A stretch of 33,212 nucleotides of DNA from contig JBHIDP010000002.1 of the NCBI GenBank assembly GCA_046760185.1, forward strand, positions 1 to 33,212, in the 5' to 3' direction. Position 1 is the first letter of the stretch; each line of letters opens with the position of its first letter. The notes under the pieces were generated by a model. It did not search any database and had not been told where the DNA came from. It was given only the letters and a program-made list of their open reading frames with translations. Below are positions 1-22,553 of the stretch, one piece after another. Source of the stretch: Anaerolineae bacterium. GTDB lineage: Bacteria; Chloroflexota; Anaerolineae; JBHIDP01. Position numbers and translations under genes: made by a program.

Positions 1-69
1 TTCTGGCTGCGGGACCAGATAGGGGATGCTGCTGGCTCCGTGATGGCCAACATGGGGGACTCTAGGACA

Positions 70-98
70 TTGACAACGGCAGCAAGCTGTGGTAAATT
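70..98 (+). promoter_or_regulatory. sigma70-like promoter candidate for the first kinase/regulator operon
   Basis: TTGACA at 70-75, a 17-nt spacer, then TAAATT at 93-98 preceded by TGG (extended -10 like). It lies about 40 nt upstream of the start at 141, which has GGGAGG upstream. Confidence 0.35.
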
Positions 99-140
99 TC
101 TTGGGTAAAGCTTCAGGACACTTTGGGGAGGCAAGGGTAG

Positions 141-1229
141 ATGGATATCGTGTGCGAAGCCAGTCTGTTCAGCCGGGTCAAGGCACGGGTGCTAAATGTG
201 CCCATTTTCTACAAGATTCTGATCGCGAACTCTCTCCTGATCATTGTCGGAGCTATCGGTGGCACCTGGCTGACCAAAATCTTTGTGCAGCAGCCTAACT
301 TTGCTCTGATCGGTTTCTTCGCCCTGGTTGGTGTCACCCTCAGCATTATCATCAACTTCGTGGTGCTGAAGACGGCCCTTCGCCCCCTGTCCACCCTGCA
401 AGGGACTGTAGAAGAGGTGTATCGGGGGAACACGCAGGTACGGGTGCCACTGAATCGGATTGATGATCCGGACCTGGCCCGTCTGGCTGTGGCCCTCAAC
501 ACCATGCTCGACCGACTGCAGACGCACACGGAGACGATAGAAGCACATCAGCGGCAACTGCGCTTTCTGTCGGGACAGGTGATCAATGCCCAGGAGGAGG
601 AGCGGAAACGGATAGCGCGGGAGCTGCACGATGAGACCAGTCAGGCGCTGGCCACGTTGATCATCAACCTGGAAGTGTTGGAGGAGAATCTACCGCAGGG
701 GTTGAAGGGGGCGAAGGAGAAGTTGGCGGCCACGAGGGGATTGGCCACGCGGACGTTGGGGGACGTCAGGAAGCTGGTGTTCGACCTGCGGCCGACGGTG
801 CTGGATGACCTGGGATTGGTGCCGGCCTTGAGGTGGTATGCGAAGAACCATCTGGAGAAAAGGGGGGTGAGGGTGCAGTTGGAGACGAGGGGGTTTGTGG
901 AGAGGCTTATGCCACAGGTGGAGACGGTGCTGTTCCGCATCACGCAGGAAGCGATGAACAACGTGGTGAAGCATGCGGAGGCGAGGAACGTGAAGGTGCG
1001 GTTAGGGCGGGAAGATGCGAAGCTGACGTTGATGGTGGAGGATGATGGGCGGGGTTTCAACGTGGAGGAGGTGTTGAAGAGGAGTGACAAGGAGACGAGG
1101 TTGGGGTTGTTTGGGATTGAGGAGAGGACAGCCCTTCTGGGTGGCACCTTCACCATTGAGTCTAAGGTGGGACAGGGGACGCGGCTGCGGGTCAGCATTC
1201 CGTATGGTCAAGGGGAGGTTGATGGCTAG
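141..1229 (+). CDS. sensor histidine kinase, NarL/DegS class (HisKA_3 + HATPase), two TM helices with almost no outer loop, HAMP-like linker
   Basis: 362-aa ORF with two N-terminal hydrophobic helices. The H-box is ARELHDETSQALA and the DLRP motif follows. The ATPase part contains QEAMNNVVKHA, DDGRGF and GLFGIEER. Confidence 0.9.
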   Translation: MDIVCEASLFSRVKARVLNVPIFYKILIANSLLIIVGAIGGTWLTKIFVQQPNFALIGFFALVGVTLSIIINFVVLKTALRPLSTLQGTVEEVYRGNTQVRVPLNRIDDPDLARLAVALNTMLDRLQTHTETIEAHQRQLRFLSGQVINAQEEERKRIARELHDETSQALATLIINLEVLEENLPQGLKGAKEKLAATRGLATRTLGDVRKLVFDLRPTVLDDLGLVPALRWYAKNHLEKRGVRVQLETRGFVERLMPQVETVLFRITQEAMNNVVKHAEARNVKVRLGREDAKLTLMVEDDGRGFNVEEVLKRSDKETRLGLFGIEERTALLGGTFTIESKVGQGTRLRVSIPYGQGEVDG

Positions 1230-1878
1230 AATACGGGTGCTGCTGGTTGATGACCATACCATTCTGCGAGACGGTATCCGGGTCCTTTTGGAGGCTCAGC
1301 CAGACATCCAGGTCGTGGGCGAAGCGGCAGATGGTCGCGAGGCGGTGCTCAAAACACGCCAATTGCGTCCCCACGTGGTCTTGATGGATATCGCCATGCC
1401 TCGGCTAAGTGGCCTGGAGGCAACTCGCCAGATAAAGGAGGAGAATCCGGAGGTTGCGGTCCTGGTGCTGACCATGCACGACAGTGAAGAATACGTGGGC
1501 CAAATCCTGGCTGCGGGGGCTAGCGGCTATGTGATCAAGCGGGCAGCGGCCAGCGAACTCGTCTCGGCCATTCGGGCTGTGAATCAAGGAGGGGCTTTTC
1601 TCTATCCCTCGATTAGCAAGATGTTGGTCGAAGACTACCTGCGCCGGGTGGAGGCTGGAGGGGAGCAGGATAGTTACGATGGGCTGACGGACCGGGAGCG
1701 TGAGGTACTGCAACTGATCGCTGAAGGGTATACCAATAAGGAGATCGCTCAGATCCTGTCGGTGAGCGTCAAGACCGTTCAAACCCACCGGAGCCACATC
1801 ATGGAGAAATTGGATATGCACGACCGGGTTGACCTGGTTAAGTATGCCATTCGAAAAGGAATCATTCAGCTAGAATAG
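1222..1878 (+). CDS. response regulator, NarL/LuxR family (REC + HTH)
   Basis: Translation from the ATG at 1222 gives MARIRVLLVDDH...MDIAMP (receiver domain) and LTDREREVLQLIAEGYTNKEIA (LuxR HTH). The start overlaps the kinase stop by 8 nt (ATGGCTAG), which indicates coupling. The track ORF from 1084 is an upstream extension. Confidence 0.9.
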   Translation: MARIRVLLVDDHTILRDGIRVLLEAQPDIQVVGEAADGREAVLKTRQLRPHVVLMDIAMPRLSGLEATRQIKEENPEVAVLVLTMHDSEEYVGQILAAGASGYVIKRAAASELVSAIRAVNQGGAFLYPSISKMLVEDYLRRVEAGGEQDSYDGLTDREREVLQLIAEGYTNKEIAQILSVSVKTVQTHRSHIMEKLDMHDRVDLVKYAIRKGIIQLE

Positions 1879-1915
1879 TGAAGCTATCATAATAGAGCTC
1901 ACTGAGGGGATATCA

Positions 1916-1950
1916 AAAGACCTGGCATGAAGCTAAGGTCTTTTTTGTTT
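1916..1950 (+). terminator. intrinsic terminator candidate after the first regulator
   Basis: AAAGACCT (1916-1923) pairs with AGGTCTTT (1936-1943) and is followed by a T run. Confidence 0.45.
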
Positions 1951-2138
1951 TCAAATGGGGTCTCCTACACCTCAAAATGGGTTCTCGGCCCTATACACAA
2001 GTGTAGCCAAGAGGTGTAAACTATAAGAGGATATTCATAGTATTCTTGCTGGTTGATCGCTCAGGCGGATGCCAAGAAGTTCCAGACGGACTAGCAGTTA
2101 TCATCTTCTTGAGAATTCTATCGCACCGGAGGTAAGGC

Positions 2139-2279
2139 ATGGATCGCCTGACAATCTTCTGGATCACCGTGGCCGTGGCATTGGTCCTGGCCGGTATCGG
2201 GCTGTGGATCAATCTGTCCATCTGGCTCCAGGGCCAGGTGAACGGCAAAGACGGCCCGGTCACTCAGCAGACTAAATGA
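2139..2279 (+). CDS. small (46 aa) single-pass membrane protein, absent from the ORF track (below its size cutoff)
   Basis: GGAGG at 2128-2132 lies 6 nt before the ATG at 2139. Hand translation gives MDRLTIFWITVAVALVLAGIGLWINLSIWLQGQVNGKDGPVTQQTK with a TGA stop at 2277-2279. It sits directly upstream of hdrC. Confidence 0.5.
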   Translation: MDRLTIFWITVAVALVLAGIGLWINLSIWLQGQVNGKDGPVTQQTK

Positions 2280-2322
2280 GGTTAAACGCCACGATATGAT
2301 GTCGTTTGCACAGGAAGGGAAC

Positions 2323-2886
2323 ATGGCGAAGCAGGTCGCGAAATTACCATTGGGATTTCCCGATTTCAGTGAGGCGGTTAGAAGCGTAAGTGGAGTTGAT
2401 GTGAATTTGTGTTTTCAATGTGCAAAGTGTGCCAGTGGTTGCCCTGTTTCCTACGCTATGGACTACACACCCACTCAACTAATCCATGCCATTCAATTGG
2501 GGTTGATTGACCTCGTGCTGAACAGCAAGACGATGTGGCTTTGTGCCTCCTGTCAAACCTGTAGTACCCGCTGCCCACAGGACGTAGACCTTGCGGGGGT
2601 GATGGATGCGGTAAGGATCATTGCCCAGCGTAAAAAGATAAGGGCTAAGATACCGGAGGTTCTGACCTTTTACAGGAGTTTTCTGAGAAACGTCGGCTTC
2701 TTTGGGCGCACGTATGAATTAGGCATGATCGCCATGCTGAAGCTCCTGACCCGCAGGTTTACCAAGGATATAGGCCTGGGGCTGAGGATGCTGAGGAAGG
2801 GGAAGTTGAATATCTTCCCCAGCTTCAGGGGGGCACTGGCGGCGAGGAGGATATTTGCCGAAGTCAAGGCCAGGGAAAAGAGATGA
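2323..2886 (+). CDS. hdrC: heterodisulfide reductase subunit C-like (2x[4Fe-4S] ferredoxin-type)
   Basis: Cys motifs CFQCAKCASGCP and CASCQTCSTRCP. The start at 2323 is preferred because AGGAAGGGA lies just upstream. The track ORF begins at 2296. The stop overlaps the hdrB start (ATGA). Confidence 0.85.
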   Translation: MAKQVAKLPLGFPDFSEAVRSVSGVDVNLCFQCAKCASGCPVSYAMDYTPTQLIHAIQLGLIDLVLNSKTMWLCASCQTCSTRCPQDVDLAGVMDAVRIIAQRKKIRAKIPEVLTFYRSFLRNVGFFGRTYELGMIAMLKLLTRRFTKDIGLGLRMLRKGKLNIFPSFRGALAARRIFAEVKAREKR

Positions 2887-3743
2887 GGTACGCATACTAT
2901 CCGGGGTGCTCCTTACATTCTACTGCGAAAGAATACGACCATTCGTTCCGTGCCGTATGCAGCAGGCTGGGTATCGAACTAGTGGAAATTAAGAATTGGT
3001 TCTGCTGCGGTTCAACCCCAGCCCATAGTGTCTCCAGGTTGCTTGGCTCGGCCCTCCCCCTTGGGAATCTGGCAACGATGCAAAAGAGGGGCTTCCAGGA
3101 GGTTGTCGTTCCCTGCGCCTCATGTTTCTCCCGGTTCAAAACGGCTCTGCACAACGTGGAGAATGAACCTGGGCTGAGAGAAGAGATCGAGCAGGTGATC
3201 GAAGGCAACTGGAGCGATGACATCAAGGTTTATCATCCACTCCAGATATTTTCTGAGGAGTCTCAATTAGGCAAGATTTCTGGCCTTGTGAAGCGAGAAT
3301 TGGCTGGCTTGAAGGTGGTTTGCTACTACGGGTGTCTGCTAACGCGACCACCAAAGGTTGCCCAGTTCGACACCTGTGAGTATCCGGAAAGCATGGATCG
3401 GGTGTTAAGGGCACTGGGCATTGCCACCTTGGATTGGTCTTACAAGACCGATTGCTGCGGGGCCGCTTTCGCCCTGACTAGAACCGACATTGTGTTGAAA
3501 CTGAGCCATGAGATTTTGGAGGGGGCCAAGTCCGTGGGCGCGGACGCAATTGCCGTTGCCTGCCCCCTCTGTCATGCCAATCTAGATACGCGTCAGGAAG
3601 AAATCGAGAAAGATTACGGCGCGGATTACAAGTTGCCGATCTTCTATTTCACCGAGTTGATGGGAATCAGTTTTGGGCTGTCGTCAAAGGAGTTATTGCT
3701 TGGAAAGCACTTAGTCGGTGCTGAAAAAATTTTGAGCAGGTGA
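2883..3743 (+). CDS. hdrB: heterodisulfide reductase subunit B-like (two CCG domains)
   Basis: 286 aa. The CCG-type motifs are NWFCCGSTP...VPCASC and TDCCGAAF...ACPLCH. The ATGA overlap with hdrC and the GTGA overlap with hdrA indicate coupling. Confidence 0.9.
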   Translation: MRYAYYPGCSLHSTAKEYDHSFRAVCSRLGIELVEIKNWFCCGSTPAHSVSRLLGSALPLGNLATMQKRGFQEVVVPCASCFSRFKTALHNVENEPGLREEIEQVIEGNWSDDIKVYHPLQIFSEESQLGKISGLVKRELAGLKVVCYYGCLLTRPPKVAQFDTCEYPESMDRVLRALGIATLDWSYKTDCCGAAFALTRTDIVLKLSHEILEGAKSVGADAIAVACPLCHANLDTRQEEIEKDYGADYKLPIFYFTELMGISFGLSSKELLLGKHLVGAEKILSR

Positions 3744-6700
3744 CAGCGATGTCTGATGACAAAAAAGTAGGCGCAGCTTTGGTAGTAGGCGGAGGCATTG
3801 CTGGGATGCAGGCGGCGCTGGATTTAGCCGGATCGGGTATCAAGGTCTATCTGGTGGATAAGAAGCCTGCCATTGGCGGCACCATGGCTCAGCTCGACAA
3901 GACCTTCCCCACCAACGACTGCGCCATGTGCACCATGGCGCCACGACTAGTCGATGTCGCTAGGCACCTCAATATCGAGCTCGTGACGTACTCAACTGTA
4001 GAGAACGTGACTGGAGAAGCGGGAAACTTTAAGGTCAAGATCAGGAACCTTAGAAGGTTCGTTGATCTGGAAAAATGTACGGGATGTGGCGAATGCGAAA
4101 ATGCATGCCCTGTGGAAGTAAAGGACGAGTTCAACCTTGGCTTGTCGAATAGGAAAGCCATCTATAGGCTATACCCGCAGGCCATCCCGAATGTTTTCAC
4201 CATTGACAAGCTTGATGAGAAATCTCCATGTAAAGTTGCGTGTCCTGCAAGGGTCAATGCACAAGCATACGTCAAGCTTATCTCGCAGAAGAAGTTCAGC
4301 GAGGCCCTTGCGATAATCAGGGAAAGGAACCCGTTCCCGGCGATATGTGGCCGCGTCTGTCACCACCCGTGCGAGGAGGAGTGCAATAGAAAAGATGTAG
4401 ACGAAGCCATCGCAATCCGCGGGCTGAAGAGGTTTGCCATAGACCACGCGATGCAAAACGGTGAGGAAGCCCCGGAGCCAGTAGCTCCAACCAAGGGGGA
4501 AAAGGTTGCGGTCATAGGAGCGGGGCCGGCAGGTCTTACCTGTGCGCTGAGACTCGTAGAGATGGGCTACCCCACGACAGTGATCGATGCCTCCGCCGAG
4601 CCGGGGGGCATGATGACGGCCTGCATTCCCAACTACCGCATACCCAAGAGCATAGCCAGATACGACATCAACCGCATACTTGCCCACGGCGTGACATTGA
4701 GAGTAAATACCAAGGTCGGAAAGGATGTGACGCTCGATGAGCTAAGAGGACAGTTCAACGCTATCTTCGTCGCGATAGGGGCGCAAGACGCGGCTAAACT
4801 GCCGGTTGAGGGGGCGGAGTCCCAAGGTGTCCTTTTCGGCTTACCATTCCTGCGAGAGGCAAAAGGCAATGGGAAGGTCGAAAATTTCGGAGAGAGCCCA
4901 ATCATTATCGGTGGTGGCAATGTCGGGATAGATTGCGCGAAGACCGCCTTGCGACTTGGTGCTAAGGAGGTTCACCTTGTTTGTCTCGAGACTCGAGATC
5001 TTGCATCCAAAGATAGAATGCCTGCACATAACTGGGAAATAGAAGAGGCTGAGGAAGAAGGCGTAGTGATACATCCGTGTCTAGGCCCAAAGAAAATCGT
5101 CATTGATAATGGGCGAGTCACGGGATTGGAAACTATCGCTTGCACTTCAGTCTACGACGATTCCGGGAAATTCGCTCCCAAATTCGACAAGGATAGCCCG
5201 TCTCCGACAATCCCGGGTGACACTGTAATAATCGCCATCGGCCAGAGGTCAGACCTAAGCGGTTTTGAGCAACTGGAACAAGAGCGCCGCCTCATCAAGG
5301 TCGACCCGATAACCCTCCAAACAAGCATACCCGGGATCTTCGCTGGCGGCGATATTGTCAGCGGGCCAGCCTCCGTGGTGGAAGCTGTACAGCATGGCAA
5401 CGAAGCCGCCATATCCATTGACAGATACCTGAGGGGGGAAAACCTCAGGGAGGGTCGTGGCCTAGAAGAGCCGAAAATTACACAGGTACGGGAAGAAGTC
5501 AAGAAAGAAGCCAGGCAAAACATGCCGAAGCTGTCGGCGTCCGAAAGGAAGACCACGTTCTCGGAGATTGAACTTGGCTTCACCGAGGAGATGGCGGTTT
5601 CCGAAGCGAACAGATGTCTGAGTTGCTCCATTTGCGCTGAATGTCTCCAATGCGTGAAGGCCTGCAAAGCTGAGGCTATTGACCATCAAATGCAGGAACG
5701 AGTGTTGGAATTGGATGTGGGCGCTGTAATACTCGCGGCTGGCTACGAAATAGTTGACCCTGAGGCGAAGAAAGAGCTTGGCTATGGCAGGTACCCCAAC
5801 GTCATCTCAAGCCTCCAGTTTGAGCGATTGCTTTCGGCAAGCGGCCCGCATATGGGCAAGGTGCTGCGCCCCTCCGACCTAAAAACCCCCAAGAAAGTAG
5901 CCTTCATCCAGTGCGTGGGCTCGCGGGAGATTGAGCACAACTACTGCTCCTCCGTGTGCTGTATGTATGCCACCAAAGAGGCCATCATAGTCAAAGAGCA
6001 CGAGCCCGATACAGACTGTACCATCTTTTACATTGACCTACGGGCCTTCGGAAAGGGGTTCGAGGCTTACTATAACCGCGCTAAGGAACTCGGCATCCGA
6101 TACATCCGATGCCGCCCCTCATCTATTAAAGAAGTGCCGCAAACCAGAAACCTCTTAATTCAATATCAGAAAGAAGGCGGCCAAATCGCCACCGAAGATT
6201 TCGACCTCGTCGTCCTCTCCGTAGGGCTTAGGCCAATACCGGAGGGGGCTGAACTGGCTCGGGTCTTTGGCATCGACCTTAACGAGCACGGCTTCGCCAG
6301 CACCAAGGAGTTCTCGCCAACCGAGTCTTCCAGGCAGGGGGTCTATGTGGCGGGCTTATTCTCCGGGCCGAAGGATATACCGGAGAGCGTGATGGAGGCC
6401 TCTGCCGCTGCATCCAAGGTGATGGGCTTTCTGGCCGAGGAGAGAGGGAGCCTCATTGCTGAGAAGACATACCCGCCGGAAAGGGATGTGTCGGGCCAGG
6501 AGCCACGCATTGGCGTTTTCATCTGCCATTGCGGCAGGAACATAGCCGGGGTAGTGAACATCTCAGAACTGGTTGAATACGCTAGAACATTGCCCAACGT
6601 CAGCTACGTCGAGGACAACCTGTATACTTGTTCCACGGACACCCAGCAGGTCATCACCCAAAAAATCCAGGAGCATGATCTGAACCGGGTTATCGTGGCC

Positions 6701-8179
6701 TCCTGCACCCCGAGAACCCACGAGCCCCTGTTCCAGGATACCTTAAGGGAAGCTGGGCTCAACCCCTACCTGTTCGAGATGGCCAATATCCGCGACCAGT
6801 GCTCCTGGGTGCACATGCACGAGCCAGAAGCGGCAACGGAAAAGGCGAAGGACCTGGTAAGGATGGCCGTGGCCAAGGCAAGGCTCCTGGAGCCTCTGTA
6901 CCCTCAGTTTGTAGACGTCATTCCCAGGGCTCTGGTCATTGGCGGTGGTATGGCTGGAATGACGGCTGCCCTTGACCTCGCGGAACAGGGGTTTGAAACC
7001 TATCTGCTGGAAAAGAGCCTCACCCTGGGTGGCAACGTGCGAAGGCTGAAATTCCTCATGAACGGCGATGATCCACAGGAATGGCTGGATACCCTGATCC
7101 AAAAGGTGACCACACACCCCAAGGTTCAGGTTTACACCGAGGCAGAAATCTCAGACTTCCAGGGGTCAATAGGCAACTTTAAGACGGAGTTTATAGCCAA
7201 CGGCAAGGTTCATAGCGTGGAGCACGGGGTTGTCATCGTGGCCACCGGTGCCCAAGAGTACAGGCCGCAGGAATATATGTATGGTCAAGACCCGAGGGTG
7301 ATGACCCAGCTCGAGCTGGAGGAGAAGCTGACGAACGGCGACTTCAAAGCCGGTTCAGTTGTTATGGTCCAGTGCGTAGGCTCGTGCGAGGAGCCACAAG
7401 GCTATTGCAGCCGGCTGTGCTGTTCTCAGGCAGTAAAGAATGCCCTGAAGATGAAAGAAGGAAAACAACAGGCAGATGTGTTCATCCTGCACCGGGATGT
7501 TCGCACCTATGGCTTCAACGAGGCATACTACCGCAAGGCGCGCGAAGCCGGGGTGAGGTTCATCCGCTTCGAGCAGGGCCACGAGCCAGAAGTGACATCT
7601 GCTAACGGACACCTGGCGGTGTCGGTTGACGATAGCCTGCTGGGTATGAGGCTGAGTATCAACTGTGATGCCGTCGTCCTAGCCGCTGGCATAGTACCTC
7701 GGGATGACAATAGCGATCTGGCCCAGAAGCTCAAGATACCTCTAACCCAGGATGGATTCTTCCTGGAGGCCCACATGAAGCTGCGGCCTGTAGATTTCGC
7801 CAGCGACGGCATCTTCCTCTGCGGCCTGGCCCATGCCCCTAAGTCTCTGACTGAAAGCATTGTCCAGGCAAGCGCAGCAGCGGCCAGGGCGGCCACGGTC
7901 CTCTCCAAGCGCCAGATTGAGCTGGAGCCGAAAATCTCCCAGGTGGTGGACGAGAACTGTGATGGCTGTGCCTACTGCATTGAGCCTTGCCCCTACGATG
8001 CCATCACCCTCATAGAGTACATGAAGGAAGGCGCCGTGAAGAAGACAGTCGAGTCGGACCCCGCCAAGTGCCGTGGCTGCGGGGTATGCCAGGCCACCTG
8101 TCCCAAGAAGGGAATCTTTGTTCGCAACTTCAGGCTGGAGCAGATATCAGCCATGGTGGAGGCAGCATTGACGAGATGA
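3740..8179 (+). CDS. hdrA: giant HdrA-family fusion: an HdrA-like module interrupted by a GltD/NfnB-like NAD(P)H-FAD module, followed by a second complete HdrA module
   Basis: 1479 aa. FAD fingerprints are VVGGGIAGMQAALDLA (N-terminus) and VIGGGMAGMTAALDLA (about aa 1066). The HdrA signature CxGSR/C...YCSxxCC occurs twice (QCVGSREIEHNYCSSVCC and QCVGSCEEPQGYCSRLCC). GltD-like motifs at about aa 160-570 are NPFPAICGRVCHHPCEEECNR, VAVIGAGPAGL and IIIGGGNVGIDCA. CHCGRNIAG marks the HdrA N-terminal cluster domain at about aa 929. There are several CxxCxxCxxxCP ferredoxin motifs. An alternative ATG start lies at 3749. Confidence 0.9.
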   Translation: MTAMSDDKKVGAALVVGGGIAGMQAALDLAGSGIKVYLVDKKPAIGGTMAQLDKTFPTNDCAMCTMAPRLVDVARHLNIELVTYSTVENVTGEAGNFKVKIRNLRRFVDLEKCTGCGECENACPVEVKDEFNLGLSNRKAIYRLYPQAIPNVFTIDKLDEKSPCKVACPARVNAQAYVKLISQKKFSEALAIIRERNPFPAICGRVCHHPCEEECNRKDVDEAIAIRGLKRFAIDHAMQNGEEAPEPVAPTKGEKVAVIGAGPAGLTCALRLVEMGYPTTVIDASAEPGGMMTACIPNYRIPKSIARYDINRILAHGVTLRVNTKVGKDVTLDELRGQFNAIFVAIGAQDAAKLPVEGAESQGVLFGLPFLREAKGNGKVENFGESPIIIGGGNVGIDCAKTALRLGAKEVHLVCLETRDLASKDRMPAHNWEIEEAEEEGVVIHPCLGPKKIVIDNGRVTGLETIACTSVYDDSGKFAPKFDKDSPSPTIPGDTVIIAIGQRSDLSGFEQLEQERRLIKVDPITLQTSIPGIFAGGDIVSGPASVVEAVQHGNEAAISIDRYLRGENLREGRGLEEPKITQVREEVKKEARQNMPKLSASERKTTFSEIELGFTEEMAVSEANRCLSCSICAECLQCVKACKAEAIDHQMQERVLELDVGAVILAAGYEIVDPEAKKELGYGRYPNVISSLQFERLLSASGPHMGKVLRPSDLKTPKKVAFIQCVGSREIEHNYCSSVCCMYATKEAIIVKEHEPDTDCTIFYIDLRAFGKGFEAYYNRAKELGIRYIRCRPSSIKEVPQTRNLLIQYQKEGGQIATEDFDLVVLSVGLRPIPEGAELARVFGIDLNEHGFASTKEFSPTESSRQGVYVAGLFSGPKDIPESVMEASAAASKVMGFLAEERGSLIAEKTYPPERDVSGQEPRIGVFICHCGRNIAGVVNISELVEYARTLPNVSYVEDNLYTCSTDTQQVITQKIQEHDLNRVIVASCTPRTHEPLFQDTLREAGLNPYLFEMANIRDQCSWVHMHEPEAATEKAKDLVRMAVAKARLLEPLYPQFVDVIPRALVIGGGMAGMTAALDLAEQGFETYLLEKSLTLGGNVRRLKFLMNGDDPQEWLDTLIQKVTTHPKVQVYTEAEISDFQGSIGNFKTEFIANGKVHSVEHGVVIVATGAQEYRPQEYMYGQDPRVMTQLELEEKLTNGDFKAGSVVMVQCVGSCEEPQGYCSRLCCSQAVKNALKMKEGKQQADVFILHRDVRTYGFNEAYYRKAREAGVRFIRFEQGHEPEVTSANGHLAVSVDDSLLGMRLSINCDAVVLAAGIVPRDDNSDLAQKLKIPLTQDGFFLEAHMKLRPVDFASDGIFLCGLAHAPKSLTESIVQASAAAARAATVLSKRQIELEPKISQVVDENCDGCAYCIEPCPYDAITLIEYMKEGAVKKTVESDPAKCRGCGVCQATCPKKGIFVRNFRLEQISAMVEAALTR

Positions 8180-8595
8180 GCACTGAAACCTTCGAGCCGT
8201 TGGTCATAACCTTCTGTTGCAACTGGTGCTCCTATGCCGGGGCGGACCTGGCCGGGGTTTCCAGGATCCAATATCCGCCGAACATACGCATTATCAGGGT
8301 TATGTGCTCTGGCATGGTGCACCCGAACCTGGTTATGGATGCCTTGACTAAAGGCGCCGACGGGGTGCTCATTTGCGGCTGCCACCCCGGGGACTGCCAC
8401 TACCAGGAGGGCAACCTAAAGGCCGAGGCGAGGGCCGATGCCATCAAGCTGATGATGGAGGACTTCGGTATCGAAGAGGAGAGGTTCAGGCTGGAGTGGG
8501 TGTCCGCCTCTGAGGCGAGCAGATTTGCTCAGGTCGTGACCGACATGGTGTCCCAGATCAAGGCCCTAGGCCCCAGCCCGTTCAAAACTTTCTAG
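8176..8595 (+). CDS. mvhD: MvhD-like (methyl-viologen-reducing hydrogenase delta subunit family, [2Fe-2S])
   Basis: Translation from the ATG at 8176 gives MSTETFEPLVITFCCNWCSYAGADLAG...MCSG...ICGCHPGDCHY. The ATGA overlap with the hdrA stop indicates coupling. The track ORF from 7987 is a frame extension inside hdrA. Confidence 0.9.
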   Translation: MSTETFEPLVITFCCNWCSYAGADLAGVSRIQYPPNIRIIRVMCSGMVHPNLVMDALTKGADGVLICGCHPGDCHYQEGNLKAEARADAIKLMMEDFGIEEERFRLEWVSASEASRFAQVVTDMVSQIKALGPSPFKTF

Positions 8596-8606: not shown

Positions 8607-8807
8607 GTGGAATTGGCAAGGACGTTTGGCGGCAAGAAGTTCATGTGGGACGGAAGGGTTTACGAGGATCAAAAGGAAGCCCAGGAGGTTGGTCAAAAGT
8701 ACAGAGGCGACGGCTTTGAGGTCGAGCTGGTTGAGGAAAACGGACAGTGCTTCTTATTCACCCGGAGGGTGGTTAAAGAAGTGGTAGTTGAGGGACAACC
8801 AATCTGA
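8607..8807 (+). CDS. small hypothetical protein (66 aa) between mvhD and mvhG
   Basis: GTG start with GGGGGAGAG upstream. The product is soluble and charged. I recognise no family for it. Confidence 0.45.
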   Translation: MELARTFGGKKFMWDGRVYEDQKEAQEVGQKYRGDGFEVELVEENGQCFLFTRRVVKEVVVEGQPI

Positions 8808-9760: not shown

Positions 9761-9823
9761 ATGAAACAGATTGTTATCCAGCCGGTGACAAGGATCGAAG
9801 GCCACGCAAAGGTGTGCTTGTAG
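9761..9823 (+). pseudogene. mvhA: 5' remnant of the [NiFe]-hydrogenase large subunit (mvhA-like), 20 codons then TAG
   Basis: AAAGGAGA RBS, then ATG at 9761. Hand translation gives MKQIVIQPVTRIEGHAKVCL followed by a stop. xPVTRIEGHAK is the conserved N-terminal large-subunit motif. No frame downstream continues a hydrogenase-like sequence. Confidence 0.7.
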
Positions 9824-9893
9824 GCTCGCATGGGGCCATATCTTTCCTTGACCCACCAGCCGATGCTTCGTCCGCCCGCGTTGTTGTGATAGG

Positions 9894-9921
9894 TTGACAA
9901 AGCTGGGAAAAGTTATATAAT
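9894..9921 (+). promoter_or_regulatory. consensus sigma70-type promoter with no clear cargo gene
   Basis: TTGACA at 9894-9899, a 16-nt spacer, then TATAAT at 9916-9921. Only short ORFs and gene fragments lie downstream. Confidence 0.4.
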
Positions 9922-10292
9922 ATTTGTAAATGGATAATTATGCCTCGGTGCTTACGTCGTTGTGATAGACGCAGCTGGAGGGAAGCTGAGATGAACGAGG
10001 GTCGACTATTTTCCCAGCCGAGACGCCAGGGAGAGGTCGGCCTTTTGGTTTTTGGGGCGGCAAAGTAGATGGCCCGGCGTGGCGGCTACCACCCGGGCCG
10101 TGGCACAGGGTGGACCGAGCACCCGGTGCGGGACGGGACTATAGCACAAGGGCTCGCTTTGGTCAACCTGGGCGAGCCTCTTTGTTTGCCTGGGACCACC
10201 GCTGGAGTGTCGAGGAAATCCTGACCACTGTTGTTACTCCTTTATTACCAACACGTAGAAGGGAGACTACCAACAAAGATTGTGTGAAAAAT

Positions 10293-10466
10293 CTACTCAG
10301 GGGTGTCTAACAACCTTCTCACGTGGACCCACATCTCATCGAAAATTTCCACCGTGAGACGACCAGTCTGCGTTTTCTGCCGGCTGGGATGGTAAGAAGA
10401 CACCAGCCAAAGTAAACCTTTCCCCAATTTAAATGTTGCTGCATGGCTGAAGAAAAATCGCGGCAT
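10293..10466 (-). pseudogene. C-terminal fragment resembling a family-4/5 uracil-DNA glycosylase
   Basis: Hand translation gives MPRFFFSHAATFKLGKGLLWLVSSYHPSRQKTQTGRLTVEIFDEMWVHVRRLLDTPE. The SYHPSRQ-T-TGRLT--MFD pattern matches my recollection of the UDG superfamily C-terminal motif B region. It is only 57 aa, so the N-terminal roughly three quarters of such an enzyme is absent. Confidence 0.4.
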
Positions 10467-10543
10467 AGCTCGGATTGGTGGTGAGATCCTTGGCGATATC
10501 CTCAGTGGTGGATAGAGTCCACCAATATCTGGTGATATATATT

Positions 10544-10578
10544 GACCCTCAGGTTATTATCCTGAGGGTCATTTTTAT
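10544..10578. terminator. perfect 10-bp hairpin, probable (bidirectional) terminator downstream of the 845-aa gene
   Basis: GACCCTCAGG (10544-10553), a 7-nt loop, then CCTGAGGGTC (10561-10570). ATTTTTAT follows on the + strand, and an A/T-rich tract follows on the - strand. Confidence 0.55.
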
Positions 10579-10648
10579 CAATGAACAATCAATCTGGTAG
10601 AACTACAAATCCTATTCCACGTCAGCCACCGATCTGTTTGCCAAAGTT

Positions 10649-13186
10649 CTAGTTTCTCTTTAAATGCTTGTTCACCAGCACAGCCATGCTCACCATAAGT
10701 AAGAAACCAATAGACGGACAAAATGGTCTGCGTGGCTCAACCTCTTCGGTTATTTTTTCTTCATCAGTCGGTTCTACAGTTGGTTCTTCGGTCGGTTGTA
10801 CAACCACCTGTGTTGCTGTCGGGGTGATCTCGATTCTGGTCACCTGATAGAAAGCTACATCTGTGTCATTGACCCTTTGATTGCATGGGAAGGTGATACT
10901 GCTATCAGATATTGTTGGGGTGATTGTCTTAATCAACCGGTTATCACGGTCGTATGCCATTACACTGATCGGATCTGAGGAACTCCAATTTGGCAGCATG
11001 TCTAATGTGATGTCTGTATCGGGTCCCATTGGATGTCGAACGACAATGTCCTCCGCATTACGTTGCTCGATGATGAAGTGATCTCCCTCGCTAAGAGGCA
11101 CACCGTTATATGCGGTGAATATGCCAGCGATCAGGTTGTCAAGCGAGCTTGTGACGAACACACCATCCGACGACAAGGTATACTCATCTACAGTGTATGT
11201 ATTCGTTGTATCCCAGTTCTTGAGCACGCTGATGGTCTCATCATCAGTTTCGAAGGTGCTGAGTGTGACATTATCGGGCAACTCATCGTAACCAGTCATC
11301 CGCGCACCGACGTAGCGGGAGGAAACGTGCGCCTGGAAATCTGTGACCACATTGACCCAGGGACTGGGCAGGCGATGCTCAGGGGGACACATAGGAGGAG
11401 CGCAGATATTGAAGCGGTCCATGTAACCGAAGGCCAGATTCACACTGAGGTCGTATTTGGAGGGGTGCCACTCCCAGATTCGGTAATGGAGGCTCTTGTC
11501 ATGCATCAGCAGCGGTTCAGCAGCATATGAACGCCAATTACCCTCCCCCCACCATTCTTTGCCAAGTTCATCGCCTTCAAAATATATGAAAGTGCCCATA
11601 CCCCCAATGGCATACTCGAGGATGCGGTCGTAGCCGGATTCAACGACGATGTGGACATCGCTGTAGGTGCGGACGTGCTCGAGCCAACCCTCGGAGAAAT
11701 CCATCGGGCTGGGCGCGCTGGGGTTGAAGTCGTACTCCCATGGAAAAGCACCGATCACATCGTGGTAGATCAAGTCGCTGGGAAGGACTTGGGTCATATC
11801 CTGGATATATTGGTCCAAACGCTGTTTCACATAAGCTGGGTGTGGAGAGACATTGAAACCGCAAGCATCCGGACCCCAACAGTAACGCTGCGGCTGTCCA
11901 CTCTCGTCCAGCACAGCCACGTCGGTGATGGTCAGCGGAGGGCTCAAGCTTGAGAACCCCTGGACCGTCGGCGACCTCTCATTCCACCACACCGCCTGGC
12001 TGATGGGCATCACCAGATGCCCCATTTCCTGAGCCGCCTCGATCGCCTGCCGGAGGTCCTCGGTTGTGCCCCATTGGGGATCGGGTGGTAGGAAGTCGGG
12101 ATCGATGGGATCCCAGAAGGGCGCGATGAGGGTCGACCCGGGAAGTTGTGCGAACAACTGGGGCCATGAACCAAAAGTCTGGGGGACGGTCATACCGGCA
12201 CCGATCCAGCCCATGGGAGACCGGGCCACGGCCTCGAACTTATCGCCCAACTTCTGCTGCACCGATGGGTATGCCGCCACGGCGTTGTCCGCCCGATACG
12301 CCTGTATGATTTCGACGAACGATCCCGAAACCCTCACCCGCACTGGGGAACCTCTCCACAACTCACCATCGGCTTTCCATGCAGGTAATTCGCGAGTCAG
12401 CACCGTGGTATCGGTGAATTCAGGGTGAGGTGAGATCTGAAGCATTGCAGGTCGCACGGGACCGCTGGGGTGCAGGCCGTACAGGGCCAGGCTGCCTCCT
12501 TGCATCTGCAAGACCAGATAGTCTGCATGAAGATCCCCAGGATACCTAGCCCGGTATGACCGTCCCTCAGTGAAGAAACCGGACTGCAGTACGATACCTG
12601 GATGAAGATACGGCAGCAGCACTTCCTCGATCTCGTTTGCGGCAAAGGTTAGTTCTACTGGGAAGTTAACCATTATCAATGGATAACCCCATCGGTTGTC
12701 GATGGTGAGTTGCATATCAAAGTAGGGTCCCTCTGTAATTTCAAATGTCACCATAGCCTCAACTTGGCGGCTCATCATCGGATCAGGGGTGTACTGAAGG
12801 ATCAATGTGTTCGTGGCATCCTCCCAAACGTAGTCGAACTGATTCGGACCCGCAGGAGAGTACACGGCTGAAAACTGGAATTGATCGGCTGGATCAGGCA
12901 CATTTGTGAATTCGACCATCCACAGTAGGTGGCCAGCAGGCCCAGTCCCCTCCTGTGAACCCGGCATAACCCTCTGACCAGTGGTCTTGTCGATGATGTA
13001 GGCGATGGCTCCGTGTTGTTTGCTTAAACCTAACTCATAGTAATTCTGGTTCCCTACAACAATTACATCAGGGTTTGAATCATCGAAATATATGGATGGT
13101 GATTGGGCATAACAAGTCCGATGAATGGACCCAGCAAAGACAAGTATGAGTATCAGAATAAACAACGATATTTGAATACGCTTCAT
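10649..13186 (-). CDS. large secreted, C-terminally membrane-anchored protein of unknown function (possibly glycoside-hydrolase-like)
   Basis: 845 aa. AAGGAGGGG RBS. Signal peptide MKRIQISLFILILILVFAGSIHRTCYAQ. A Pro/Thr/Glu linker (QPTEEPTVEPTDEEK) precedes the hydrophobic helix IGFLLMVSMAVLV and a basic tail KHLKRN. The enzymatic assignment is only a weak impression from W/Y-rich motifs. Confidence 0.8.
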   Translation of the reverse strand: MKRIQISLFILILILVFAGSIHRTCYAQSPSIYFDDSNPDVIVVGNQNYYELGLSKQHGAIAYIIDKTTGQRVMPGSQEGTGPAGHLLWMVEFTNVPDPADQFQFSAVYSPAGPNQFDYVWEDATNTLILQYTPDPMMSRQVEAMVTFEITEGPYFDMQLTIDNRWGYPLIMVNFPVELTFAANEIEEVLLPYLHPGIVLQSGFFTEGRSYRARYPGDLHADYLVLQMQGGSLALYGLHPSGPVRPAMLQISPHPEFTDTTVLTRELPAWKADGELWRGSPVRVRVSGSFVEIIQAYRADNAVAAYPSVQQKLGDKFEAVARSPMGWIGAGMTVPQTFGSWPQLFAQLPGSTLIAPFWDPIDPDFLPPDPQWGTTEDLRQAIEAAQEMGHLVMPISQAVWWNERSPTVQGFSSLSPPLTITDVAVLDESGQPQRYCWGPDACGFNVSPHPAYVKQRLDQYIQDMTQVLPSDLIYHDVIGAFPWEYDFNPSAPSPMDFSEGWLEHVRTYSDVHIVVESGYDRILEYAIGGMGTFIYFEGDELGKEWWGEGNWRSYAAEPLLMHDKSLHYRIWEWHPSKYDLSVNLAFGYMDRFNICAPPMCPPEHRLPSPWVNVVTDFQAHVSSRYVGARMTGYDELPDNVTLSTFETDDETISVLKNWDTTNTYTVDEYTLSSDGVFVTSSLDNLIAGIFTAYNGVPLSEGDHFIIEQRNAEDIVVRHPMGPDTDITLDMLPNWSSSDPISVMAYDRDNRLIKTITPTISDSSITFPCNQRVNDTDVAFYQVTRIEITPTATQVVVQPTEEPTVEPTDEEKITEEVEPRRPFCPSIGFLLMVSMAVLVNKHLKRN

Positions 13187-13365: not shown

Positions 13366-13854
13366 TGAGCCAGTGGGGCCTCAAATGCAGTTTTATCGTC
13401 AAGTCGGCTTCGCCAGAATGGGCTGGATCCCCACTTCAGGGGTAATTTGAGGCTTGATAACATAGAAATTTGGGATGTAATTAACCTCTCAGAGGTCAAT
13501 TTTGCTAACTGTCAAATTAGGCTATTAGGCGGAAATTTATTACATCTAGTACACCTGCTGCACCTTCGACCAGGCGCAGATAGATAATTGCCGCTTCCCT
13601 CCACCTCCCAGCGCCGGGAAGGGATCGCCGTCCTGGGTATCTTTGCCCTCTCATTCTTCTGAAAGCTGTCACTCCCAGGTAACAAAACACCCGACCACCC
13701 ACCGGGATCGCTCCCCAGATAGGGGTCGGCTGTCAATCTTTCACACCACCCTCCTCGGTCGACTACGATTGGGACGGGGGCTGCGATGTTGCTACACGCC
13801 GCTTTATATTTATGATATCATAGATGGAGGCACAAGTCAATACACTTCTCTATT

Positions 13855-14061
13855 GTCACGTTACCGCCAAAAATTCATAGGGTTGTTACAGCCAAAATCT
13901 AATACCTCCTGCTAGCTACGGAGTGTCGCCTTACCCCCTACCAGTAGTATTCCCAATACCTTGCAGGCCCCACCGGTTGTGGTCAAGTGCTTGCCAGCAA
14001 CCTATTAGATTTTGGCGGTAACAAATAGCGCTCGACTATTAGATTTTAGCAGTAACGTGAC
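13855..14061. mobile_element. nested terminal-inverted-repeat structure (MITE-like, or clustered IS ends)
   Basis: R1 is GTCACGTTACCGCCAAAAATTCATAG (13855-13880) and R2 is GTTACAGCCAAAATCTAATA (13885-13904). Their inverted partners are R3 TATTAGATTTTGGCGGTAAC (14003-14022) and R4 TATTAGATTTTAGCAGTAACGTGAC (14037-14061). R2 and R3 match at 19 of 20 positions. Confidence 0.55.
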
Positions 14062-14404
14062 AAGTGCTGCCAGCTTGATATTCTGCTCATCACTGTCCAA
14101 CCGCAGTCTATACCGGAAGTAGTCAGCCCTGGATTGTCGCAGAAACTCGAGGCAACTGTGGCCCGGGTCTCTCAGTACATAGCGGAAAGCTGCTTTTAAG
14201 GTCTGGCGATTGGGGTTAGGGATACCTGATCAGATCACTGTCTTCGCCATTGAGGTGGAGGATGTGAGCACCTTTGGCGAAGGATGCACCCTTGTGGGGA
14301 GGCAGCAATCCCCTCTGCTGTGGAGATGGTCCTACAGGAGTTGAGATCGTGACTCTTTCTGCTGAGGTGACGTGTTTTCGAGAGAGATGGCTCCCAGCCG
14401 CCTG

Positions 14405-14827
14405 TTAGGTTGCTGAAAAGAGAGATTGCTTCTCCAGAGGGAGTTCGGCTGCCATCTCGCCATATTTCTGCTTCAGCAGCTCAAGGGCTCCCTCCAGGGC
14501 AGTGCCGACAAAGGCTTCTCTTTCTCTGAGGAGCATCGCTATTCTTGCATCGGCCTCGGCTACACAGCGGCTGTTGAGCACTGCCCTGATGTCCTCTTTG
14601 AGTTGATATTGCCGCTCCAACATAGTTCCTCTGTGTTCCAACAGGAGAGCACATAGCTCCATCCTCTCGTTTGTGGTCAATTCCTCTCTTCCCTTCAAAA
14701 AGGCGTGCCTGGCTCTGAAGAGGCTTTCCCGTTGTCCCTTGGGCAGGGAATGGCGGTATGCCTTCAGATCCCGGTCAAAGAGTTGACGCACAAGATCCTC
14801 AAAGTGTTTCCTTTCCAGTGGACTCAT
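14405..14827 (-). pseudogene. transposase-derived fragment (resembles the central/C-terminal part of ISL3-type DDE transposases)
   Basis: This 140-aa ORF has no convincing RBS. HAFLKGREELTTNERMELCALLLEHRGTMLERQYQLKEDIRAVL parallels the ISL3 pattern (R)xLLKxxExLTxxQxxxLxxLLxxxxxLxxAYxLKExxR. No DDE N-terminal part is present. It adjoins the inverted repeats at 13855-14061. Confidence 0.4.
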
Positions 14828-16476: not shown

Positions 16477-16551
16477 CAGTCTTGAAATCGCATCGCGCCA
16501 ATCGGCACTTTCTTTGTTGTGGTAACAGTCTCCTTCTGTGACTGTGTTGAT

Positions 16552-18618: not shown

Positions 18619-18621
18619 TCG

Positions 18622-19281
18622 GTGTCAAAGATCCGGGTGCTGTTAGTTGATGATCATGCCATCGTCCGCGCTGGCCTTCGTATGCTCCTGCAAGCTCAAC
18701 CAGATGTGGAGATAGTTGGCGAGGCCGGGAAAGGGACGGAGGCTATCCAGATGGTGCGGGAGCTGAGGCCCGACGTGGTCTTAATGGACATCACCATGCC
18801 CGACATGGATGGCTTCCAAGCTACCCGGAAGATCAAGGCCCTTGAGCCTGAAACGGCTGTTCTGGCCCTGACTATACACGAGGGTGAAGAGTACTTCTTC
18901 GAGATGCTCAATGCCGGAGCCTCCGGCTATGTGCCCAAGAAAGCGGCCCCCACTGAGCTCGTCTCCGCCATCCGTGTCGTACACAGAGGTGATGTATTTC
19001 TCTATCCACCGTTGGCTAAGGCCCTGGTAAGTGACTACCTGCGTCGTGTGGAGAGTGGAAAGGAGAGGGAGAGTTACGATGGCCTCACCAAACGGCAGCG
19101 CCAAGTCGTGAAGCTCATCGCCCGCGGGTGCCGCAATCAGGAGATAGCAGACCTCCTGGTCATAAGTGTCAAAACTGTGGAACGACATCGCGAGAACATC
19201 TACCGAAAGCTGAACCTCCACAGCCGTGTCGAATTAGTGAAATACGCCATCCAGAAAGGGCTCATTGACCTGGGAGAGTAG
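18622..19281 (+). CDS. response regulator, NarL/LuxR family; close paralogue of the regulator at 1222-1878
   Basis: GTG start. Motifs are SKIRVLLVDDHAIVRAGL...MDITMP, then LTKRQRQVVKLIARGCRNQEIA. It shares long identical runs with the first regulator (IRVLLVDDH, GASGYV, ELVSAIR, FLYP, DYLRRVE, SYDGLT, LVKYAI). Confidence 0.9.
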   Translation: MSKIRVLLVDDHAIVRAGLRMLLQAQPDVEIVGEAGKGTEAIQMVRELRPDVVLMDITMPDMDGFQATRKIKALEPETAVLALTIHEGEEYFFEMLNAGASGYVPKKAAPTELVSAIRVVHRGDVFLYPPLAKALVSDYLRRVESGKERESYDGLTKRQRQVVKLIARGCRNQEIADLLVISVKTVERHRENIYRKLNLHSRVELVKYAIQKGLIDLGE

Positions 19282-22115: not shown

Positions 22116-22173
22116 ATGGTACCACTTACCGTAACCTATGGCCTATCTTTTGTGACTGCTTGAATTGCATTTT

Positions 22174-22527: not shown

Positions 22528-22553
22528 CATTTTGGCAAAGTGAGGGGTTCGAC

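Follow-up and report, generated by a model that had tools for sequence, protein, structure and literature searches.

The window analyzed here, a stretch of 33,212 nucleotides from an Anaerolineae bacterium (contig JBHIDP010000002.1), encodes a giant HdrA protein between the genes hdrB and mvhD. We consider it probable, though well short of certain, that this protein is the large flavin and iron-sulfur (FeS) subunit of a cytoplasmic HdrABC-MvhD-type bifurcating or confurcating complex, of the kind described for Moorella and under the name HdrL, and that it works in an NADH-fed scheme. As read from the sequence, three flavin motifs of the dinucleotide-binding type and a single NAD(P)H motif lie on one chain. 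The first-pass annotation had recognized this fusion and called its inserted and duplicated arrangement unusual. That claim is unsupported: the protein was named HdrL in 2009, the same architecture was mapped for the Moorella HdrA in 2022, and full-length forms occur across many phyla. The architecture is thus already known and widespread, and it is biochemically under-studied.

Domain organization of the giant HdrA and support for its assembly

Residue numbers refer to the 1476-residue form of the protein (start at ATG 3749) and are lower by three than those of the first-pass annotation. Domain boundaries were set by phmmer searches against all PDB chains and by Pfam and NCBIfam profile scans, with the HdrA of Methanothermococcus thermolithotrophicus (5ODC_A) as the reference structure, and conservation was counted in an alignment (A1) of 97 full-length relatives. 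Residues 10 to 154 aligned without gaps to positions 146 to 290 of 5ODC_A, and the match resumed with residues 629 to 842 at positions 293 to 510. The residues in between, about 155 to 628, matched GltD/NfnB-like proteins, so that approximately 475 residues are lodged between HdrA positions 290 and 293. In the second half of the chain, residues 917 to 1089 corresponded to positions 2 to 174 and residues 1287 to 1471 to positions 467 to 647. E-values against 5ODC_A ranged from 1e-38 to 1e-65 per segment. The parsing upheld the earlier proposal of two HdrA flavin domains and an inserted GltD/NfnB-like FAD/NAD(P)H module, the motifs being three for flavin and one for NAD(P)H (Table 1). All NCBIfam equivalogs for methanogen HdrA or HdrA2 scored below their cut-offs (NF040770, 1030 against 1100; NF041778, 779 against 1400; NF041891, 741 against 1300).

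The chain contains two sets of a GxGxxG FAD motif and a CxGxR(D/E)..C..CC motif, the cluster cysteines of which were invariant in the 97 relatives. Altogether, 38 cysteines were invariant across the alignment, and these group as ligand sets for up to nine [4Fe-4S] clusters. C58 and C61 of the loop FPTNDCAMC were present in 97/97 relatives, and C61 corresponds to Cys197 of methanogen HdrA. The GltD-like module has eight cysteines for two [4Fe-4S] clusters (C161, C165, C200, C204, C208, C212, C623, and C626), seven of them invariant and the remaining one, C200, kept in 93 of the 97 relatives. Its FAD motif is GAGPAG (residue 257), and its NAD(P)H motif, GGGNVG (residue 388), is followed by VCLETR. 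A Glu/Lys pair has been kept in both HdrA flavin domains: E692/K743, which align to E356/K409 of 5ODC_A and to E696/K750 of the Moorella HdrA, and E1191/K1230, which align to Moorella E1204/K1246. E692, K743, and E1191 were invariant, and K1230 was conserved in at least 90% of the relatives. In the second cluster motif (CVGSCE), the additional cysteine at residue 1213 (nt 7385 to 7387), which adjoins a [4Fe-4S] ligand, is specific to the window, 94 of the 97 relatives having arginine there (CVGSR).

The inserted module was identified by several scores. Its best PDB matches were NfnA of NfnABC (9bov_A and 9n5u_A) and StnC (8oh5_C), with E-values from 1e-104 to 1e-85, followed by Thermotoga maritima NfnB (1e-68) and further by NfnL, GltD, and dihydropyrimidine dehydrogenase. 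Profile scans returned PF14691 (Fer4_20) at 75.6 bits (cut-off, 25.8), PF07992 (Pyr_redox_2) at 208 bits, and NF009410 at 559 bits, above its cut-off of 516. The module enters precisely where the inserted ferredoxin passes from its first CxxCxxCxxxC motif (C110-C120) to its second (C629-C639), resulting in a three-level nesting in which the flavin domain holds the ferredoxin domain and the ferredoxin domain holds the GltD module. In methanogen HdrA, the inserted ferredoxin domain is thought to be the docking place of ferredoxin.

Compared to NfnB, the module is circularly permuted: it begins with PCxxxCP and ends with F.E..G.T.E.A..EA.RCL.C, a terminal segment that opens the T. maritima NfnB and Pyrococcus furiosus NfnL proteins in two secondary alignments, which were weak but concordant. 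NfnA and StnC have the same order as the module and are collinear with it through RCLxC. An AlphaFold model of residues 1 to 915, built on 53 sequences, reached a pLDDT of 89.6 and a pTM of 0.84. In Foldseek superpositions, the outer part of this model superposed on HdrA across the insert (about 898 columns; TM-score of 0.93 to the 427-residue chain 8rvu_a), and the insert matched T. maritima NfnB with a TM-score of 0.80 and a root mean square deviation of 2.3 Å, the scores for NfnB, NfnL, and GltD ranging from 0.77 to 0.80. The NfnA, StnC, NfnB, and NfnL modules, which are the best matches in both sequence and fold, share with the window module two [4Fe-4S] clusters, a FAD, and two Rossmann folds. 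They differ in that the window module is nested in an HdrA and has CLE in place of YRR; StnC, in addition, has IGKIC where the window has the NfnB-like CGRVC.

The open reading frame (ORF) is uninterrupted from GTG 3740 through 8179, encoding 1479 residues with all the motifs that the first-pass annotation had quoted. ATG 3749 is more likely to be the start than GTG 3740, and the resulting 1476-residue form is present in a public protein collection (P0001). A frame of this length might have arisen from an assembly chimera, or from a frameshift, fusing separate hdrA, gltD/nfnB, and hdrA genes. We compared it with Logan contigs from four runs, that is, four independent hydrothermal-vent metagenome samples (X1 to X4), which contained 94 to 99% of the sequence words sampled from the three stretches queried. 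The contigs break at 3903 to 3936, 5900 to 5990, and 6794 to 6822, and their loose ends enter other sequences, one of them being a canonical hdrA start at 6512, as a chimera would have it. However, these breaks coincide with the HdrA motifs of highest conservation, and the contigs share some 30 nt there, which is expected of graph nodes common to paralogues; we attribute the breaks to k-mers that paralogues in the community have in common at these places.

Moreover, the segment from 3903 to 5916, which spans both insert junctions (at about 4.2 and 5.6 kb), lay within one contig in all four samples, and the segment from 5990 to 6801, which spans the junction of the halves (6.5 kb), lay within one contig in two of the four. 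A contig of 3888 nt from X4 (26 to 3913) bridged hdrC and hdrB into hdrA, and one of 3591 nt (26 to 3616) was found with zero differences in X1 and X2. Depth was even, at about 66 to 70, 54 to 57, 65, and 30 to 34 in the four runs. Relatives were drawn from two sources: a locus scan with one genome per species, in which at least 600 stretches matched, 598 were confirmed as relatives, and the best 80 loci were examined by our own ORF calls (45 of them with an intact core gene); and the 120 best clusters of a collection of 5.8 billion proteins. A single full-length ORF was present in 43 of the best 80 loci, more than 100 independent protein clusters were collinear over 98 to 100% of the length, and the window protein was also collinear with Moorella proteins from isolate genomes. 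Contigs, even depth, and collinear homologues thus effectively rule out a chimera or a frameshift, to which we give practically no credence.

Zero depth at 2000 to 3584, at first taken for an upstream chimera, proved to be an artefact, since contigs over 1 to 4300 cover the region. At 6512, a contig with other upstream sequence (..ATGGAAATGGAAGAACCTAGAGTG) joins the window sequence in X1 and X3. It resembles the beginning of another gene of the same community, a canonical hdrA that has the conserved coding sequence of the N-terminal domain in common with the window.

Table 1. Features of the hdr operon and domains of the giant HdrA (window positions; residue numbers of the 1476-residue form)
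Feature	Position	Strand	Basis and remarks
hdrC, 196 aa, 2x[4Fe-4S] ferredoxin-like	2296..2886	+	Pfam Fer4_8/Fer4_17; NCBIfam HdrC/QmoC-like, all below cut-off
hdrB, 286 aa, putative disulfide-reducing site	2883..3743	+	Pfam CCG x2; both C..CC..CxxC motifs readable
Giant HdrA (HdrL / Moorella-type)	3749..8179	+	1476 aa from ATG 3749 (1479 aa from GTG 3740)
Flavin (thioredoxin-reductase-like) domain 1, N-terminal part	3749..4063	+	GGGIAG aa 14-19; loop FPTNDCAMC; 5ODC_A 146 onward
Inserted ferredoxin, first CxxCxxCxxxCP	4064..4210	+	C110, C113, C116, C120 invariant; 5ODC_A up to 290
GltD/NfnB-like module	4211..5632	+	Pfam Fer4_20, Pyr_redox_2; NF009410; PDB alignments; Foldseek
Inserted ferredoxin, second CxxCxxCxxxC	5633..5698	+	C629, C632, C635, C639 invariant; 5ODC_A from 293
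Flavin domain 1, C-terminal part	5699..6448	+	CVGSRE..YCSSVCC (C722, C733, C737, C738); E692, K743
HdrA N-terminal-type domain, second half	6497..6913	+	C926, C928, C961, C986 invariant; 5ODC_A 2-130, 224 bits
Flavin domain 2	6914..7918	+	GGGMAG aa 1065-1070; CVGSCE..YCSRLCC (C1209, C1220, C1224, C1225); E1191, K1230
C-terminal 2x[4Fe-4S] ferredoxin	7919..8176	+	C1404-C1414, C1441-C1451; 5ODC_A 562-647; Pfam Fer4_7
mvhD, 139 aa, [2Fe-2S] electron-transfer subunit	8176..8595	+	Pfam FlpD, 186 bits
66-aa ORF between mvhD and mvhG	8607..8807	+	Same-position homologues in loci L040, L048, L049, L052, L054, L082
mvhG-like [NiFe] small subunit, 307 aa	8823..9746	+	Pfam Oxidored_q6; NCBIfam VhuG 234 bits (cut-off 450)
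mvhA remnant ([NiFe] large subunit)	9761..9823	+	First 18 codons MKQIVIQPVTRIEGHAKV, then unrelated sequence and stop

Complementary halves and nucleotide preference

The second half of the chain had been described as a second full HdrA. We found it to be partial and, moreover, complementary to the first. Unit 1 (residues 1 to 900) has the Cys197-type loop and the inserted ferredoxin and lacks both the N-terminal cluster domain and the C-terminal ferredoxin. Unit 2 (residues 917 to 1476) has precisely these last two, the ferredoxin being of the 2x[4Fe-4S] type, whereas the inserted ferredoxin and the TNDCxxC loop are absent from it, the GNFK strand running straight into the next core strand. 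The four-domain HdrA set is therefore complete only across both halves, neither of which has all four. By BLASTP, the halves were 30 to 36% identical in an alignment that skipped the inserted domain. This degree of identity between the flavin domains points to a fusion of diverged paralogues, and together with the differing domain content it rules out two full HdrA copies made by recent duplication.

In the methanogen enzyme, one HdrA lends its Cys197 to complete the N-terminal cluster of its partner HdrA. By its domain content, the window chain can be read as a pseudo-heterodimer in which a single polypeptide unites two HdrA units that have diverged. The same complementarity has been used to argue that the tandem or fused HdrAs of anaerobic methanotrophic archaea (ANME) are built-in heterodimers (Chadwick 2022, PMC9012536). 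When half 1 was modelled alone, residues 50 to 58, just before C58 and C61, formed the only internal stretch of low confidence (pLDDT below 50), and this is weak evidence for a loop that would need the partner half.

We also compared the nucleotide-binding site with that of solved relatives. At residues 412 to 421 (nt 4982 to 5011), the window protein has Cys-Leu-Glu followed by a five-residue insert (DLASK), where NADPH-type relatives have YRR. In the alignments shown, all five solved relatives that bind NADPH carry YRR (or YR-RS) at the end of the second nucleotide-fold strand. As a general rule for Rossmann folds, NAD(H) is favoured when the residue there is acidic. Because CLE replaces the NADPH-type YRR, NADH would be favoured, which suggests that it is the preferred nucleotide of the window protein. 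The Moorella-group protein also has ACLE at this place. Both types are well represented in the family, with about 50 CLE-type members (Cys/x-Leu-Glu) versus about 45 of the YRR type, and around 40 of the CLE-type members, the window protein included, carry the five-residue insert DLxSK. A neighbour-joining tree of the relatives, which has no support values, mixes members of both types, so that nucleotide preference has probably switched repeatedly within this family.

Operon context and proposed electron flow

As proposed by the first-pass annotation, the gene is coupled to its neighbours by short overlaps. ATGA overlaps were found between hdrC and hdrB (2883 to 2886) and between hdrA and mvhD (8176 to 8179), and a GTGA overlap links hdrB and hdrA (3740 to 3743) only if the start is GTG. 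The 66-residue ORF that follows mvhD, conserved at this place in hydrogenase-linked relatives, had no Pfam or NCBIfam match. The MvhADG set of the window is incomplete: mvhD and mvhG are whole, and mvhA is cut after codon 18. When MvhA of loci L063 and L054 was used as a tblastn query against the window, only 9764 to 9820 was matched. In three of four samples, the contigs fork exactly at 9814, where a second path, ACCATTCAGCTCGATGACCAGGGAAACGTT, carries MvhA on normally with the residues TIQLDDQGNV. Past 9814, the depth of the window path was about 48/65, 45/58, 43/52, and 18/33 in the four runs, or about 55 to 80% of that upstream, indicating a mixed population in which the haplotype with truncated mvhA is in the majority. 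A repeat pair flanking 9815 was looked for as the ends of a mobile element and was not found. After the break, about 830 nt (9815 to 10648) are without a convincing gene.

The closest relatives, among them L082 (66% identity), L003, L019, L040, L048, L054, and L063, carry the whole series hdrL-mvhD-small ORF-mvhG-mvhA-maturation protease, and in the neighbour-joining tree without support values the window groups with these hydrogenase-linked members. The first-pass annotation had suggested that NAD(P)H rather than H2 feeds a bifurcating Hdr complex. The first part of this suggestion is in agreement with proposals in the literature and with the NADH:benzyl viologen activity of the Moorella thermoacetica homologue. 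The replacement of H2, in contrast, is not supported, as the operon continues into mvhG and the truncated mvhA and its nearest relatives have a complete mvhDGA set; in this clade, the nucleotide module accompanies the hydrogenase and does not substitute for it.

In the NADH-fed scheme that we favour, NADH would be oxidized at the GltD-type FAD. Single electrons would then run along two clusters in the module and two in the split ferredoxin domain, and from there, through a bridging cluster held by the N-terminal domain of unit 2 and C61 of unit 1, to an HdrA flavin with the conserved Glu/Lys pair. One branch from this flavin would lead over the CxGxR..C..CC cluster and HdrC to HdrB, whose CCG clusters would reduce a disulfide-type acceptor. 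In the relatives and in the minority haplotype, the other branch would extend to the [NiFe] site of MvhA (H+/H2); in the majority haplotype of the window the low-potential partner is open, because mvhA is truncated. The same wiring could operate backwards. Our scheme agrees with the one put forward for type III HdrA with mvhADG, and StnC offers a precedent for a GltD module in the role of a simple nucleotide port.

For the same complex, we regard an assignment of opposite roles as possible but clearly less probable. H2 (via MvhAGD) or another donor to MvhD would be the source, the GltD module would take the place of ferredoxin, and NAD+ and a disulfide would be reduced. Such a reaction would be of use at H2 pressures so low that NAD+ reduction is uphill. 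In its favour, the module occupies exactly the arm by which methanogen HdrA reduces ferredoxin, a complete MvhADG is encoded in the closest relatives, and the reverse reaction is explicitly allowed in PMC12054007. Yet for the only measured homologue, the HdrA of M. thermoacetica, it was NADH oxidation that was assayed; in 23 of the 45 loci, the intact core gene is paired with metVF, a setting in which NADH has been proposed as the donor; and mvhA is truncated in the window haplotype. The wiring itself is equally compatible with H2 and with NADH as the donor.

The pairing with metVF raises the question of whether methylene-tetrahydrofolate (methylene-THF), and not a disulfide, could be the true high-potential acceptor. 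This would fit metV and metF as the commonest neighbours of the giant HdrA type (23/45 loci), as well as the 52% identity to the Moorella-group protein. We nevertheless find it improbable for the window, which clusters with the hydrogenase-linked members of the unsupported tree, and in which no gene for methylene-THF reductase or MetV adjoins the operon: mvhG and the mvhA remnant follow mvhD, the rest of the window not having been searched with MetF or MetV queries.

A simpler protein is also conceivable, namely, a non-bifurcating NADH:disulfide (or NADH:MvhD-partner) oxidoreductase whose extra flavins would act as converters between one- and two-electron steps. With a disulfide at about -140 mV as the acceptor, the oxidation of NADH is downhill by itself, which counts in favour of this possibility. 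Furthermore, non-bifurcating HdrA homologues exist (PMC9430772), and in StnC the GltD module does not bifurcate and merely lets the nucleotide's electrons in (PMC10482914). Nevertheless, both flavin domains have kept the Glu/Lys pair, a literature marker of bifurcating HdrA (PMC9430772, PMC12054007), and a non-bifurcating enzyme would leave the conserved third arm, formed by the C-terminal ferredoxin and MvhD, without a role. We thus consider it unlikely.

Several points weigh against the NADH-fed bifurcating complex that we prefer. HdrB and HdrC both fall below the NCBIfam cut-offs for the methanogen equivalogs, HdrB reaching 152 bits against a cut-off of 345 for TIGR03288. The NADH assignment draws on a rule about motifs and on comparison with a single congeneric protein, and about half of the family has YRR, so that nucleotide preference varies. 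Finally, with mvhA truncated in the dominant haplotype, the H2 branch as drawn would be inoperable in most cells.

More tentatively, the hydrogenase-linked subclade may use a single-chain asymmetric HdrA, in which two flavins are candidates for the bifurcating site, for NADH bifurcation to a disulfide and protons, or for the reverse reaction, and the vent population may be losing its H2 arm. If this were true, the complex would allow NADH-driven H2 evolution, or a reduction of NAD+ driven by H2 and a thiol, and the population would have been caught in the course of the loss, with mvhA truncated in about 55 to 80% of the genomes as judged by depth.

Other genes of the window were noted in passing. 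Downstream of the mvhA break, 10649 to 13186 (minus strand) encodes an 845-residue protein with a signal peptide and no family match; 14405 to 14827 (minus strand) holds a fragment of an ISL3-type transposase, and short repeats, both inverted and direct, are clustered between the two (13853 to 14063). A membrane redox module at 20251 to 23741 consists of a multihaem cytochrome c (358 residues), an FeS protein that scored above the NCBIfam DsrO cut-off (211 against 200 bits), and an NrfD/QrcD-like membrane subunit (417 residues). Pairs of a HisKA_3 histidine kinase and a LuxR-type response regulator occur three times in the 33 kb (141 to 1878, 16519 to 19281, and 24704 to 26957), one of them directly upstream of the hdr operon.

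Distribution and comparison with known systems

The 120 best protein clusters ranged from 1438 to 1694 residues. Those of about 1440 to 1530 residues had 96 to 100% query coverage at 54 to 68% identity, and variants of 1645 to 1694 residues had 76 to 78% coverage. Full-length relatives were found in more than 20 bacterial and archaeal phyla; the phylogenetic distribution of the fused form, which the first-pass annotation had wished to see determined, is thus a wide one that includes both domains. Among the best 80 loci, the bacterial labels were Acidobacteriota, Chloroflexota, Planctomycetota, Bacillota, Desulfobacterota/Syntrophia, Bacteroidota, Gemmatimonadota, Spirochaetota, Armatimonadota, Atribacterota, Actinomycetes, and Nitrospinota, and the archaeal labels were Promethearchaeota (Asgard), Bathyarchaeia, and Thermoplasmata. 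Around the 45 intact core genes, mvhD was directly downstream in 39 cases, metV and metF were neighbours in 23, hdrB and hdrC in 18, and mvhG and mvhA in 4.

Variants of the architecture were also seen. Split genes (about 290 and 1081 residues, with other genes between) occur in Planctomycetota and Acidobacteriota, among loci L049, L052, L054, L057, and L058. HdrA-like ORFs of about 1,010 residues, among the archaeal and Dehalococcoidia loci L059, L060, L069, L071-L073, and L080, are presumably, by their length, GltD-inserted forms with a single flavin domain. One form of 1619 residues is fused to MvhD (P0022), and Thermoplasmata have forms of about 1650 to 1690 residues (P0014, P0016, and P0018).

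Homologues in isolates carry inconsistent names, including "Ferredoxin--NADP reductase," "NADPH-dependent glutamate synthase beta chain," "Alpha-helical ferredoxin," "NAD-dependent dihydropyrimidine dehydrogenase subunit PreT," and "FAD-dependent oxidoreductase." For annotation, Moorella-type or HdrL HdrA is fitting, and "glutamate synthase," "ferredoxin-NADP reductase," or "FAD-dependent oxidoreductase" is not. The giant HdrA type is among the most widespread putative electron-bifurcating modules of anaerobes, and only one homologue, that of Moorella, is known to have been assayed. The window adds no new principle; its complementary halves, the CLE/YRR split, and the three recurring partner sets (metVF, mvhGA, or mvhD only) make experiments on the family easier.

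The protein type was first named in the sulfate reducer literature. Strittmatter 2009 (PMC2702500) gave the name HdrL to a "heterodisulfide reductase/glutamate synthase fusion" that has an NADH site and is invariably followed by mvhD, and HdrL (Sfum_0824) is abundant in Syntrophobacter fumaroxidans with sulfate present (PMC5947623). By this description, the HdrL proteins of Desulfobacterium autotrophicum and S. fumaroxidans are like the window protein, being large fusions with an NADH site and mvhD next to them, and the Desulfobacterales loci that we retrieved have the same full-length architecture. They differ in their neighbours, which are dsr, fdh, or metVF instead of hydrogenase genes, and many Desulfobacterales members have an in-frame TGA at the position of C61, where the window has cysteine. 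Such a stop at the Cys197 equivalent (FPTNDCAM*) was seen in L020, L024, L032, L034, L036, L039, L045, L056, L068, L077, and L079 and in the second copies of L013 and L018, and mvhD is also split by an in-frame stop in loci of the Desulfobacterales type. The TGA at the C61 position presumably encodes selenocysteine.

Archaeal proteins share parts of the architecture. The fused double HdrA of ANME ("type II," HdrA3/4) likewise has two flavin domains per chain and a complementary N-terminal domain and Cys197. However, it has no GltD insert, and the order of its units is reversed, with the N-terminal domain in the first unit and Cys197 in the second, the opposite of the window. A bioRxiv preprint on HdrA evolution (10.1101/2024.09.26.615249) deals with proteins of 640 to 775 residues only and does not treat the giant type. 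An NfnB insert is carried by HdrA9-11 of ANME-1 (Chadwick 2022, PMC9012536), and for the "type III HdrA" defined in 2025 the insert was proposed to block the ferredoxin site, turning this arm into an NADH port (PMC12054007); according to that study, type III HdrA has had no biochemical work so far. The same study proposed a scheme with NADH, H2, and heterodisulfide for GltD-inserted HdrA with mvhADG in Bathyarchaeota and allowed for the reverse reaction. The archaeal HdrA9-11 and type III proteins resemble the window protein in having an NfnB/GltD module of about 470 to 500 residues inside the inserted ferredoxin and a proposed use of NAD(P)H, and those of Bathyarchaeota also in being clustered with mvhADG. 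Type III is described with one flavin domain and the window protein has two, so that features of "type II" and "type III" are joined in it.

The closest described system is that of Moorella. In the domain map of Kremp 2022 (PMC9430772), the 1487-residue HdrA of M. thermoacetica consists of an HdrA-like part without an inserted ferredoxin (residues 922 to 1487) and an N-terminal part with ferredoxin and a flavin domain that is interrupted by a GltD domain, and it has three FAD and one NAD(P)H site as well as the Glu/Lys pairs E696/K750 and E1204/K1246. The paper, citing Mock 2014, gives 190 U/mg for the oxidation of NADH with benzyl viologen. The sequences that we compared were those of Neomoorella and Moorella relatives of the same length. 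Residues 7 to 1470 of the window protein aligned collinearly to residues 11 to 1480 of P0157 (Neomoorella glycerini, 1487 residues) at 52% identity, the P0157 cluster comprising N. glycerini, N. stamsii, N. mulderi, N. carbonis, and N. sulfitireducens, and E692, K743, E1191, and K1230 fell exactly on the four mapped residues.

The M. thermoacetica HdrA and the window protein are thus alike in length (1487 versus 1476 residues), in the order of their parts, and in having Glu/Lys in both flavin domains, and the window operon shares with the Moorella MetFV-HdrABC-MvhD cluster hdrC and hdrB upstream and mvhD downstream. They differ in what follows mvhD, which is metV and metF in Moorella and mvhG with a truncated mvhA in the window, and in two details of the window sequence, the five-residue insert DLASK after the nucleotide motif and the cysteine in place of arginine in the second CVGSR motif. 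Overall, the end-to-end alignment and the agreement with the published map indicate that the window protein belongs to this already described kind.

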